Shown: positions 3,443 to 12,452 of the stretch, piece by piece
Numbering within the stretch: position 1 is the stretch's first letter
Layout: the number at the start of each line of letters is the position of its first letter
Assembly: GCA_037133055.1 (NCBI GenBank)
Contig: JBAXOY010000084.1
Location: forward strand, 1-14,184
DNA length: 14,184 nucleotides
Reading direction: 5' to 3'
Origin: Chlamydiota bacterium
GTDB taxonomy: Bacteria > Auribacterota > Tritonobacteria > UBA1439
Notes under the pieces: generated by a model
What the model was told of the DNA's origin: nothing
Database searches by the model: none
The model's input: only the letters and a program-made list of their open reading frames with translations
Translations under genes and position numbers: made by a program

Positions 3443-4441
3443 TCACAGCGTTCTGAACGCCTCGACCTTCTCGACGGTCCCGATGACGATCAGGACATCG
3501 TCCGCGGCGACGAGGTAGGTGGAGCGCGGGACGTGGGTGTACTCGCCGGTCTTCCCGTGCTTCACCGCGATGACCCATAGGCCCGTCCGGTCGGTGTCGT
3601 TCACCTCCCGCAGGGCCTTCCCGACGAGCGACGACGCCGGGCTTACCCTGACCTCCTCCACCCGGAGGGCGGAGTCCTTCCCGCGAAGCATCGCGTCGAG
3701 GAACGACACCACCTCGGGCCGCACGAGCTCGGATGCCATGCGGAGCCCGCCGATGAACTCGGGGGAGACGACCGCGTCGGCGCCCGCCTTGCCGAAGATG
3801 GCGGCGCAGCACTCGTCCACCGATTTCGTGACGATGCGAAGGGCGGGGTTCAGGCCCCTCGCGGTCATCACCACGAACAGGTTGTCCTTGTCGTTGTCGA
3901 GGGCGCTCACGAGGCCCCGGGCCTTTTTCACGCCCGCGGCGAGGAGCACGGCCTCCTCGGTGGGCTCACCCTGGAGGAAGAGCAGCTCGTCCCGCTCCTT
4001 CAGCTTCGCGATGCGCCCGGAATCCGCCTCGACGACGACGAACGCGCGCCCGGTCTTGTGCAGCTCGGCAATGATATAGCGCCCGACGTCGCCCGAGCCG
4101 CAGACGATGTAGTGACCCTCGAGCCCCTCGATGCTGCGTTTCACTTTTTTCCTCCTCAGGTATCCCCCGAGCTCCCCCTCGACGAAGAACGCGGTGATCG
4201 TACTCAATCCGTAAATGAACGTGCCCATCCCCACCATGATCAGCACGATGGTGAACGCCCTCCCCGGGGCGGAGAGGGGGTGGACCTCGCCGTATCCCAC
4301 CGAAGTGAGCGTGATCACCGTCATGTACAGCGCTTCAAAGACCGACCAGCGTTCGATCAGCACATACCCGGCCACCCCCGCGACATAGAGGCACGCGAGG
4401 AGCGAGACCGCGATGATGAGCTTCTTCTTCAGGTCGATCAT
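3443..4441 (-). CDS. Potassium channel protein, 2TM pore plus RCK (TrkA_N/TrkA_C), MthK/Kch-like
   Basis: 332 aa. TM1, pore helix and filter YMTVITLTSVGYGE, then TM2. Rossmann HYIVCGSGDVG, DKDNLFVVMTARGLNP, AGADAVVSPEFIGG and a C-terminal TrkA_C (SLVGKALRE...DVLIVIG). Confidence 0.95.
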   Translation of the reverse strand: MIDLKKKLIIAVSLLACLYVAGVAGYVLIERWSVFEALYMTVITLTSVGYGEVHPLSAPGRAFTIVLIMVGMGTFIYGLSTITAFFVEGELGGYLRRKKVKRSIEGLEGHYIVCGSGDVGRYIIAELHKTGRAFVVVEADSGRIAKLKERDELLFLQGEPTEEAVLLAAGVKKARGLVSALDNDKDNLFVVMTARGLNPALRIVTKSVDECCAAIFGKAGADAVVSPEFIGGLRMASELVRPEVVSFLDAMLRGKDSALRVEEVRVSPASSLVGKALREVNDTDRTGLWVIAVKHGKTGEYTHVPRSTYLVAADDVLIVIGTVEKVEAFRTL

Positions 4442-4533: not shown

Positions 4534-4546
4534 ATGCTTTCTGGCT

Positions 4547-4746
4547 GTAACTGCTCAGGAGCCAGAATTCAGGAGTCAGGAGCCAGGAGTTGGAATGAGG
4601 AAGCCAGCGGCGACATTTGAGGACTTGGGATACGGCGATGTTCCCGAGTGAATGCAGTTTTTCGAAGAGGTCAGTACGCTACCGGAAGCGTATTCGGGAT
4701 CCATTCTGGATTCTGGCTCCTGACTTCTGACTGCCTGAATAGTTAC
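4547..4746. mobile_element. 200-bp non-autonomous MITE-like element with TIRs and a candidate 8-bp target-site duplication
   Basis: Left end GTAACTGCTCAGG (4547-4559) versus the reverse complement of the right end (4734-4746), GTAACTATTCAGG: 11/13 match. TTCTGGCT directly abuts both ends (4539-4546, 4747-4754). Internal heptamer arrays lie in inverted orientation (4556-4590, 4702-4737). Visibly lower GC than the flanking genes; no transposase. Confidence 0.75.
4595..4723 (+). pseudogene. Internally deleted four-helix-bundle (TIGR02436 / 23S rRNA IVP-like) gene remnant
   Basis: In-frame MRKPAATFEDL/GYGDVPE*MQFFEEVSTLPEAYSGSILDSGS*. The family's N-terminal 'FEDL' appears fused straight onto the C-terminal 'DLGY...EEVS...AY' helix. 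Internal TGA at 4649-4651; GGAG (4586-4589) precedes the ATG. Recognised from family motifs, not from a search. Confidence 0.65.
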
Positions 4747-4825
4747 TTCTGGCTTTTCTAATCGACACCCCCCGCGCGGATGATGCATCATATTTCAGCG
4801 CCGCGCGCAACCCGGAGGACACGCC

Positions 4826-5515
4826 ATGTATCCAGACGACGCGATCCAGCCCCAGCCCCTGTCCGCCGCACCCCCCGTCGCAAACCCATGGGAACGCCGC
4901 GCGCAGGGCGAAGCGGTCCGCGCGCTCTGGGACACCCTCGTCATGTCCCTCTCGAGGCCCGGCGATCTCTTCCGGGGCACTCCGCGAAGCGGGGGGCTCG
5001 GGGCCCCGCTCGCGTACGCGGCCATCCTCGGCACGGTCGGCATCGTCGCCCAGTCGCTCTGGCAGATCGGATTCCGCGCGCTGAGCGCGCTCCTCTCCTC
5101 CCGCCTCAATCCCGATGCGGCTTCTCCCTCGGCGCACGGCGAGATTTTTACTCTCGCCGTGCCGTTCGTCGTGCTGGTTCTGAGCCCCCTGCTCATCACG
5201 GTCGGCCTCTTCATCGGCGCGGGCCTCACCCATCTCGCCCTCATGATGCTCGGGGGCGACCGGCACGGCTTCGAGGGGACGTTCCGGGGAATGGCGTACG
5301 CGCACGGGCCGATGGTCTTCTACGTCATCCCGCTCGTCGGCGTCGTTATCGGCGGCGTCTGGGCGGCCGTGCTCCAGGTCATCGGCATCAGCAAACTTCA
5401 GGAGACCGAGTGGTGGCGCGCGCTCCTCGCGATCCTGCTCTTCCCCTGCGCCTGCGCGATGATCGGCATCATCGCCGCCATCGCGATCGCCGCGCTGTTC
5501 GCGTCAAAGGGGTGA
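4826..5515 (+). CDS. YIP1-family membrane protein
   Basis: 229 aa. PWE...LSRPGDLFR, several TM helices, THLALMMLGG...FEGTFRGMAYA...IPLVG...GISKLQETEWWRALLAILL. SD GGAGG. Confidence 0.85.
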   Translation: MYPDDAIQPQPLSAAPPVANPWERRAQGEAVRALWDTLVMSLSRPGDLFRGTPRSGGLGAPLAYAAILGTVGIVAQSLWQIGFRALSALLSSRLNPDAASPSAHGEIFTLAVPFVVLVLSPLLITVGLFIGAGLTHLALMMLGGDRHGFEGTFRGMAYAHGPMVFYVIPLVGVVIGGVWAAVLQVIGISKLQETEWWRALLAILLFPCACAMIGIIAAIAIAALFASKG

Positions 5516-6248: not shown

Positions 6249-6355
6249 TTACGCCCACACGCCCTCACGTACCCATCCTCTTGCGCCCCTATGCCGTTAC
6301 GCTTATGTGCGCAGAAGCTTCATCTGTCACGCCCCCACGCCCACACGCCCTTACG
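6249..6355. repeat. Intergenic element copy 1: conserved core within an ACGCCCnn octamer array
   Basis: Core ATGTGCGCAGAAGCTTCATCTGTCACGCCCC starts at 6305 and is flanked by ACGCCCAC/ACGCCCTC/ACGCCCCC/ACGCCCTT units. Confidence 0.85.
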
Positions 6356-8308: not shown

Positions 8309-8387
8309 CGCGGGGATGCCGCGGGGGCCTAGGATCCTTCTCGCGGTGGCTGACCCGTCATCGGTACTTCACGGTTGCGGAGGTCTC

Positions 8388-8466
8388 TCACCCTTTCCCC
8401 CCTTCCCCCTTGAGGGGGAGGGCCGAGCCGCCTGCCGAAACCGCGGCGCAGGCAGGGGTGGGGGGT
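8388..8466. repeat. Nested REP-like palindromes upstream of the tRNA
   Basis: CCTTCCCCC-TTGA-GGGGGAGGG hairpin (8401-8422). Inner CCTGCC...GGCAGG inverted repeat (8431-8456). The GGGGTGGGGGGT tail is partly complementary to TCACCCTTTCCCC. Confidence 0.6.
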
Positions 8467-8549: not shown

Positions 8550-8625
8550 CGGGGCGTAGCGCAGCTGGTAGCGCGTCTGGTTTGGGACCAGAAGGTCCCG
8601 GGTTCGAATCCCGGCGCCCCGACCA
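8550..8625 (+). tRNA. tRNA-Pro (anticodon TGG)
   Basis: Full cloverleaf: acceptor CGGGGCG/CGCCCCG, D-arm GCGC-AGCTGGTA-GCGC, anticodon arm TCTGG-TTTGGGA-CCAGA, T-arm CCGGG-TTCGAAT-CCCGG and an encoded ACCA end; 76 nt. Confidence 0.98.
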
Positions 8626-8697
8626 TCACTACGGGTACTGGTTTCTGGCAACAACAGAGGGAAGGAGTGGCGCACCACAGCTACGGGTACTGGTTTC
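8622..8697 (+). repeat. Direct repeat beginning at the tRNA 3' end (period 52 nt)
   Basis: ACCA-nnn-CTACGGGTACTGGTTTC at 8622-8645 and 8674-8697; 17-nt perfect core. Confidence 0.85.
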
Positions 8698-8746
8698 CCG
8701 TTGCGTGCGGCTCGTTGGCCGTGCGCAGTGATTCGGCACCGGGAGG

Positions 8747-11453: not shown

Positions 11454-11534
11454 ACACGTGCACGCCCGCACGCCCATGTGCGCAGAAGCGTCATCTGTTA
11501 CGCCCCTATGCCCTTACGCCCGCACGCCCATACG
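11454..11534. repeat. Intergenic element copy 2
   Basis: Core ATGTGCGCAGAAGCGTCATCTGTTACGCCCC starts at 11476, within ACGCCCGC/ACGCCCAT/ACGCCCCT/ATGCCCTT units. Confidence 0.85.
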
Positions 11535-11535
11535 A

Positions 11536-12311: not shown

Positions 12312-12364
12312 CCGGACGAATCGGACGCGTCAGACAGGTCAGACATGTCAGACAGTCCGACGCG
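12312..12364. repeat. Nonamer tandem tract (TCRGACNNN)
   Basis: CCGGACGAA-TCGGACGCG-TCAGACAGG-TCAGACATG-TCAGACAG-TCCGACGCG. Confidence 0.8.
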
Positions 12365-12452
12365 CCCACACGCCCCTACGCCCATGCGCGCAGAAGCTTC
12401 ATCTATAACGCCCCCAAATCATTACGCCCTAACGCCCGACACGCCCTCACGC
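12362..12452. repeat. Intergenic element copy 3
   Basis: Core ATGCGCGCAGAAGCTTCATCTATAACGCCCC starts at 12384, within ACGCCCCT/ACGCCCAT/ACGCCCTA/ACGCCCTC units. Confidence 0.85.

Follow-up and report, generated by a model that had tools for sequence, protein, structure and literature searches.

The window considered here, i.e. the whole stretch of 14,184 nucleotides analysed from contig JBAXOY010000084.1 of a Chlamydiota bacterium (GenBank assembly GCA_037133055.1, 92% complete; host genome G000), contains a transposable unit of 200 bp (positions 4547-4746). The unit is intergenic, with a divergent channel gene on one side and a Yip1 gene on the other. The features of the region are as follows:

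3443..4441, minus strand: potassium-channel / TrkA-domain host gene, the left neighbour, outside the element (NCBIfam matches under the cut-off)
4539..4546: left copy of the target-site duplication, TTCTGGCT (from the sequence; the 8-bp signal is family-wide)
4547..4559, plus strand: left TIR GTAACTGCTCAGG, an IS66/ISBst12-type end (13/13 against one end of the element L280)
4556..4590, plus strand: left heptamer array of five units, the first overlapping the TIR (from the sequence)
4595..4723, plus strand: collapsed four-helix-bundle ORF, a pseudogene (DNA identity to the cassette on contig C135)
4620..4628, plus strand: deletion junction AGGACTTGG (a 9-mer present twice in the parent, 237 bp apart)
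4702..4737, minus strand: right heptamer array of five units, reverse complement of the left one (from the sequence; base-paired to the left arm according to the fold prediction)
4734..4746, minus strand: right TIR CCTGAATAGTTAC, reading inward GTAACTATTCAGG (13/13 against both ends of the IS66 element L281)
4747..4754: right copy of the target-site duplication, TTCTGGCT (from the sequence)
4826..5515, plus strand: Yip1-domain host gene, the right neighbour, outside the element (PF04893, 46 bits; cut-off 28.6)

The preliminary description, made from the letters alone, had recognised 13-bp imperfect TIRs with a flanking 8-mer around a 200-bp unit as well as an array of five heptamers on the left and reverse-complement ones on the right, and all of these are indeed in place, the two TIRs agreeing at 11 of 13 positions. 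The left heptamers in the window sequence fit CAG(G/A)A(G/T)Y; on the right, one unit is 8 nt long, and the array overlaps both the end of the ORF and the TIR, three of its units lying inside the 3' end of the ORF remnant. The third TTCTGGCT at 4711-4718, which had been raised as a caveat, is real as well, and a duplication matching the interior of its own copy is seen in the window copy only (1/25 copies). As RNA, the unit is predicted to form a single long hairpin (z -5.55, none of 200 shuffles being equally stable). Two weak sigma-70-like sites of the divergent genes, 9/12 each, bracket the copy.

Elsewhere in the window, there are three copies of a second short repeat, in which TACGCCC/CACGCCC units surround GCGCAGAAGC (6250-6350, 11470-11535 and 12330-12420), with three BLAST matches in the genome for each of the three copies. 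At 8550-8625 and 8630-8705, tRNA-Pro(TGG) is followed by the directly repeated CTACGGGTACTGGTTTC, and a hairpin-like repeat is found upstream of this tRNA (about 8380-8465), its relatives in the genome including one adjoining a transposase relic on contig C101. An ORF on another contig of the host genome (C11:41000-41985), starting MARPLRIEYPGAWYHIT, presumably resembles REP-associated tyrosine transposases.

The parent of the window unit is represented by a 444-bp copy in the same genome (C135:447-890) with an intact ORF of 121 aa, the sole intact TIR-bounded gene found; a second intact copy with both ends is not present among the 45 homologous loci described below. The parent ORF scores 117 bits with TIGR02436 (cut-off 24) and 123 bits with PF05635 (cut-off 33.8), and remains below the cut-offs of both Avd models, NF033474 (25 bits, cut-off 80) and PF22296 (29 bits, cut-off 40). 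The window copy agrees with the respective ends of the C135 cassette in 33/34 and 113/127 nt and corresponds to the parent minus the 237 bp between two AGGACTTGG repeats, its ORF remnant thus retaining the first 11 and the last 34 codons, joined in frame with two junction codons in common and interrupted by a premature TGA at 4649-4651. The remnant was assigned to TIGR02436 / PF05635 via its DNA identity to the parent, whose ORF passes the cut-offs, and in this way the proposed derivation from a TIGR02436 four-helix-bundle gene has been borne out. The parent copy itself has a target duplication of 5/8 and one mismatch per end.

Most of the passenger gene is missing from 24 of the 25 copies, which share deletions defining size classes of 200, 183-184, 144-145 and 137 bp; since the diagnostic deletions are common to several copies, the short forms must have been amplified after deletion. 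The 18 cores exhibit 35, 41 and 44 substitutions by codon position, 42 synonymous and 72 non-synonymous codons and three stops, and this even substitution plus the stops identifies a near-neutral remnant. Core identity within a genome is 88% in the host and 97% in the relative G007, and the cores are 88-94% identical between genera versus 67% for the channel gene compared between the host and G003. These values suggest that the host copies are old and that their spread was horizontal.

Concerning the family in the host genome, it comprises 25 paired copies of 137-444 bp, scattered and including the window unit, together with unpaired ends, several of them at contig breaks. The 8-bp duplication is perfect in eight of the 25 paired copies and matches at 7/8 or better in 16, and the left flanking 8-mers are all different from each other (25 among 25), so that the duplication goes beyond chance. 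The preliminary description had proposed to check whether further pairs of these ends each have a distinct 8-bp flank of their own, and this is what was observed. When the duplication length was scanned from k=5 to k=12 for 24 copies, the signal appeared solely at k=8, with 84% of bases matching versus 27-33% at the other lengths; 10,000 random re-pairings of the flanks averaged 2.18/8 and reached 3.27 at most. The insertion targets are AT-rich (39% GC versus 64% for the genome). A flanking 'CA', found at 15/46 ends in an Armatimonadetes record, was rejected as a rule in view of its frequency in the host genome (2/50) and in another record (0/24), and six lone end motifs of the host genome (C52, C11, C85:4658, C90, C41 and C104) were discarded as not being element ends.

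Most copies in the host genome are intergenic, several of them at 10 bp or less from an ORF end, and in-silico excision revealed no clear interrupted gene in this genome, where high-GC shadow ORFs confound the analysis. At C97:7400, C110:5535, C73:4021, C68:4387, C85:5685 and C135:447, the TAA of the GTAAC end serves as the stop codon of the adjoining predicted ORF; a stop codon supplied in this manner may explain why such insertions are tolerated.

Mobility is evidenced also by empty sites. The genes flanking the copies on contigs C68, C32 and C3 are adjacent without an element in G001, G002 and G004 (3/3 tested), and at two of these empty junctions, projection of the flanks gives overlaps of 8 and 9 bp, as expected for a single target copy, the others being too diverged. 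Empty sites have been found for three other copies, but not at the window site itself, where the preliminary description had proposed to look and where no empty allele between channel and Yip1 genes was detected: none of five family genomes yielded the Yip1 protein, and channel DNA had no orthologous match in G001, G002, G004, G005 and G007. In G003, the channel ortholog sits in another context, and ~45-bp units arranged in tandem precede it in the place of the MITE (L203:1000-1320, on G003:C163). No joint skipping the window element was seen in the contigs of eight runs, contigs being able to show presence, not absence. The description of the unit as a non-autonomous TIR element with 8-bp duplications is thus supported, and the element is multicopy, with 25 paired copies and 3/3 empty orthologous sites.

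Among 40 relatives, near-full-length DNA matches are confined to three (G003, G006 and G007), with short matches in four more. The exact end motif occurs 40 times in the host genome, 77 times in G003, 11 times in G006 and 47 times in G007, and is not present in the congeners G001 (80% complete) and G002 (96%). Thirteen copies from G003, G006 and G007 have a duplication that is perfect in seven cases and 7/8 in two; in a Candidatus Auribacterota record, it reaches at least 7/8 in 18 of 24 copies, the two counts not being additive because the collections may overlap. In wider searches, the right-end pattern was met at 79 loci in 11 records, the titles of which name Auribacterota, Armatimonadetes and, once each, eight other groups; no match was obtained in viral contigs. 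For the remnants from Armatimonadetes, protein identity reaches 85%. In the Armatimonadetes record (46 loci, L068-L146), 34 of the 46 ends are without a partner within 3.4 kb, some of them near contig ends, and 12 are paired, three of these 12 with a duplication of at least 7/8. At the unpartnered ends, the cargo breaks off against foreign DNA at differing positions, with no duplication; that one-ended copies would as a rule have a duplication of variable length was dismissed, there being one case, of 36 bp (L084), among the 46 ends. It should be mentioned that other hairpin elements are located in or beside MITE copies (L033/L126, L184, L185 and L173), two of them inserted at almost identical positions in the remnant, following ...TTTCCGAGTTA.

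With regard to the ends themselves, the first 12 nt of the left TIR GTAACTGCTCAGG are those of one published end of ISDge4 from Deinococcus geothermalis, a member of the ISBst12 group for which the accessible text of PMC12898284 gives the ends GTGACTACTCAGCA / GTAACTGCTCAGCA, an 8-bp repeat and observed transposition; an 8-bp direct repeat has been published for ISPpa5a and ISPpa7, too. G056 and G014 contain lone exact ends, which led to a DUF4338 (PF14236) ORF located behind GTAACTATTCAGG and through it to complete IS66 elements. The element L280 (G219:C39) is a complete IS66 of 2638 bp with the ends GTAACTACTCAGG / GTAACTGCTCAGG, and L281 is an IS66 element with GTAACTATTCAGG at both ends. 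Their TnpC proteins belong to those scoring 299-303 bits with NF033517 (303 for L280; cut-off 180), and the right end of most copies has 16 nt (GTAACTACTCAGGTAG) in common with a real IS66 end. In a protein search blind to the ends (E<=1e-80), 8 of 251 genomes matched the clade, and all eight carry at least one GTAACTRYTCAG-type end at 12/12. In a tree of 26 transposases, which omitted 10 of 36 candidate loci (no hit), all nine rows with 12/12 ends group together in a single clade (100/98), gathered partly by similarity to one member, the other 17 rows having 11/12 at most. Concerning the duplications of the autonomous elements, the 8 bp are perfectly repeated for all six clade IS66 copies in G289, the two copies in G312 have 7/8 and 6/8, and 4 of 12 paired elements have none (L288, L292 and L294; L281 as judged by eye). 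The assignment of the unit's termini to the IS66 type is thus supported by the GTAACTRYTCAG ends matching one IS66 clade and ISDge4, along with the 8-bp duplications.

The autonomous transposase with the same ends, also envisaged in the preliminary description, does exist in other genomes, but the host genome retains a relic only: PF03050 gave no match to an intact IS66 transposase in the 92% complete assembly, and the frameless relic at C101:4059-4337 has its five best matches all in the cognate clade (E 4e-12 to 1e-5; next 0.004). No cognate-clade transposase was found in G003, G006 and G007. An IS66 of G007 itself, with the ends GTAATGGGTCAG (9/12) and 26% identity, was considered as the best partner and rejected since it lies in another clade. 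GTAA-starting ends and an 8-bp direct repeat are present, as in IS66/ISBst12 elements, and the TnpC DDE transposase is encoded neither in the element nor in the 444-bp parent, the element being a derivative or client of IS66 and not an insertion sequence. As the host genome keeps the relic only, we infer movement in trans; the sequence comparisons argue strongly that the copies were mobilised by TnpC of this clade, probably long ago.

An ORF of ~300 aa belonging to DUF4338 / PF14236 ('Druantia DruA') is found inside the ends of many IS66 elements and some elements with other transposases, before or after the transposase gene (L280, L281, L273, L149, L262, L154, L156 and L276-L279, and also L261 and L270). 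At these loci, it seems to be a widespread accessory gene of insertion sequences and not a part of a defence operon. No DUF4338 protein could be confirmed in viral contigs; the PF14236 profile gave no match in five genomes, with the control likewise silent.

The preliminary description had further suggested that TIR elements carrying such genes as cargo cause their scattered positions in general, and this could not be upheld. The 45 homologous loci comprise 29 from the phylum (top loci only), 13 from another phylum and three from the host genome, 42 thus being in other genomes. At no locus among the 45 do GTAACTRYTCAG-type ends stand on both sides, and at none is there a TIR pair flanked by a duplication of at least 7/8, the TIR-pair detector being silent on the parent itself (duplication 5/8) and liable to miss decayed pairs of other families. 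Period-7 arrays on both sides, of many different heptamers, were found at 30 of the 45 loci with a threshold set without a shuffled control. L334 has a single GTAACTRYTCAG-type end, GTAACTATTCAGG, on the 5' side only; L331 has an end-like word at the array edge (10/12 match); and close relatives with 65-80% protein identity share the heptamer and have no transposon ends. The spread of most genes of the family is not accounted for by the TIR element, and since heptamer-armed cassettes are dispersed without these ends, capture by IS66 ends is secondary.

Three further four-helix-bundle genes of the host genome are without IS66 ends: C91:2550-3200 (L001), C60:10900-11500 (L004) and C49:2825-3145 (L003). 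Among them, one is flanked by direct 9-bp arrays of GTGTGAAGG, one has inverted TAAGCTG-type heptamers, its gene being internally deleted, and one has no evident array. In three genomes (L311, L313 and L321), four-helix-bundle cassettes are located apparently in frame inside a gene that, judging from its motifs, is probably DNA methyltransferase-like, the codons on either side of the cassettes reading YYTPTYIV and ILDPACGSG. In the openly accessible article texts, neither heptamer arrays nor IS66 ends were found to have been linked with four-helix-bundle genes, the accessible portions of PMC4679880 (on TAACTGA repeats) and PMC8700078 included.

The same ends also enclose other cargo in the phylum, as seen in examples hand-picked from pattern matches. 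In G053, they bound a different four-helix-bundle cassette with GGTTCAC arrays, with perfect duplications at 7 of 10 loci and a profile match of E 2e-5 for the longest cassette; G017 has a third, decayed one (matches of E 3e-16 to 4e-4, duplications of 5-7/8). Three unrelated cassettes in one small phylum thus share the same 12-13-bp ends. Hairpin modules without any four-helix-bundle match are bounded by them as well in G051 (3/4 perfect duplications), G050 and G031. Either tiny IS66 derivatives readily take palindromic cargo or the arrays mimic the end.

Based on the above results, the 200-bp unit is with good confidence a MITE, i.e. an internally deleted 444-bp four-helix-bundle cassette with IS66-type ends, which an IS66 transposase of the ISBst12 group has probably mobilised in trans. 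Its history would start from heptamer-armed TIGR02436 cassettes, which are widespread without transposon ends. One of them may have gained 12-16-bp ISBst12-type ends, yielding the 444-bp form that occurs once in the genome today; the loss of 237 bp between the AGGACTTGG repeats, as read from the sequence, gave the 200-bp form, and later deletions the forms of 137-197 bp. The short forms themselves were amplified, since they occupy many unrelated sites with 8-bp duplications, carry common diagnostic deletions and are absent from the orthologous sites of relatives. The enzyme would be TnpC of the GTAACTRYTCAG-end clade, with the relic alone left in the assembly. The copies here are probably old and neutral, and horizontal transfer may have taken the element across genera and phyla; both the heptamers and the protein encoded by the cargo are presumably passengers.

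The step in which the ends were gained, and this step only, would change if the ends arose by mimicry and did not come from an insertion sequence: the TCAG(G) edge of an array and a nearby GTAA, often a stop codon, would by chance form an ISBst12-like end, the transposase would then pick up the cassette, and the arrays might add binding sites. The first heptamer (4556-4562) overlaps the TIR in register, an end-like word stands at the array edge of the two free cassettes L334 and L331, and TCAG- or TCAC-like array words are present in all three unrelated captured cassettes. Mimicry nevertheless seems rather unlikely, as the 16 nt GTAACTACTCAGGTAG of the right end are shared with a real IS66 end, the cargo in G031, G050 and G051 is heptamer-free within the same ends, and the heptamer of the G017 family has the opposite orientation. 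Less probable still is an insertion by machinery of the cassette's own—the four-helix-bundle protein plus a partner, possibly via hairpin RNA—with the IS66-like ends being incidental. The free cassettes that have spread without TIRs (0/45), the strong predicted RNA fold, the many one-ended, shortened copies in one genome and the family likeness to DGR Avd (accessible text of PMC10053308; NF033474 25 bits, cut-off 80) would all suit it; exact 8-bp duplications and precise GTAAC ends, however, are found only where IS66-type ends are, also with cargo lacking four-helix-bundle sequence.

Retention of the copies as regulatory hairpins or as genes for a 42-residue peptide is quite improbable. In its favour are the mostly intergenic positions, in several cases no more than 10 bp away from the end of an ORF, the in-frame deletion and the place of the window copy between the weak sigma-70-like sites (9/12 each). 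Against it, the substitutions are flat across codon positions and accompanied by stops and frameshifts, a functional 42-aa peptide having been rejected; moreover, the orthologous operons lack the element and the survival of intergenic insertions explains the positions. Finally, the possibility that the TTCTGGCT pair is repeat-derived and the unit not mobile draws on the same 8-mer at 4711-4718 and on the window site, for which no empty allele was found. It is hardly tenable any longer, being already largely refuted by the 25 different left 8-mers among 25 copies, 16 duplications of at least 7/8, an internal match in the window copy only and the empty sites for 3/3 other copies.

Considered as a MITE moved by an IS66 enzyme, the unit joins the known class of MITEs and mobile insertion cassettes (MICs), the class itself being well known. 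It is short (200 bp), has TIRs (11/13) and no transposase, with only the four-helix-bundle remnant inside, and its family displays a duplication of fixed length (8 bp) and many dispersed copies. According to the accessible text of PMC6199540 and PMC3281130, MICs such as MIC231 of Bacillus cereus are alike in having two inverted repeats, no transposase, a duplication and many copies, as well as a passenger gene in the long form and the need for a cognate insertion sequence. An intact passenger gene is found in the parent (C135:447-890), but not in the window copy. The ends of MIC231 are those of IS231, whereas here they are of the IS66/ISBst12 type; MICs measure 700 bp to 3 kb and the parent here 444 bp; and the passenger here is a heptamer-armed TIGR02436 gene, mostly lost in 24/25 copies. 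Mobilisation in trans is reported in a review as shown for MIC231 (the same accessible text), whereas here we infer it. ISDge4 is alike in the GTAACTRYTCAG ends (12/12 for one of its ends) and the 8-bp duplication, but the element here encodes no TnpC, the link resting on the end sequence and duplication length (PMC12898284, accessible text).

The ORF-bearing 23S rRNA intervening sequences of Coxiella and Leptospira (S23p / PF05635) have the same protein family and a long terminal stem, and the available text of PMC4990558 lists a 'transposition remnant' among the hypotheses on their origin. The element here is, by contrast, intergenic and not in a 23S rRNA gene, with transposon ends and target duplications. 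As for DGR Avd, it is a distant relative of the cargo in sequence and fold (PMC10053308, accessible text), both Avd model scores being below the cut-off and no DGR context being seen in the window.

For the biology of the TIGR02436 / 23S rRNA intervening-sequence protein family, a limit is set, since most of its genes are heptamer-armed without transposon ends, and one branch of the family is tied to a named transposase group, for which ISDge4, with matching ends and observed transposition, is a ready test system. That a single 12-bp end has repeatedly taken up cassettes and hairpins unrelated to each other is relevant to the origin of MITEs. A tentative and rather doubtful extension is that IS66 transposases of the ISBst12 group repeatedly make transposons from heptamer-armed four-helix-bundle cassettes, the arrays being pre-adapted by their likeness to the inner half of the end; if true, transposons would be born from host repeats, and a part of the 'rRNA intervening-sequence protein' family would have a testable carrier across phyla.
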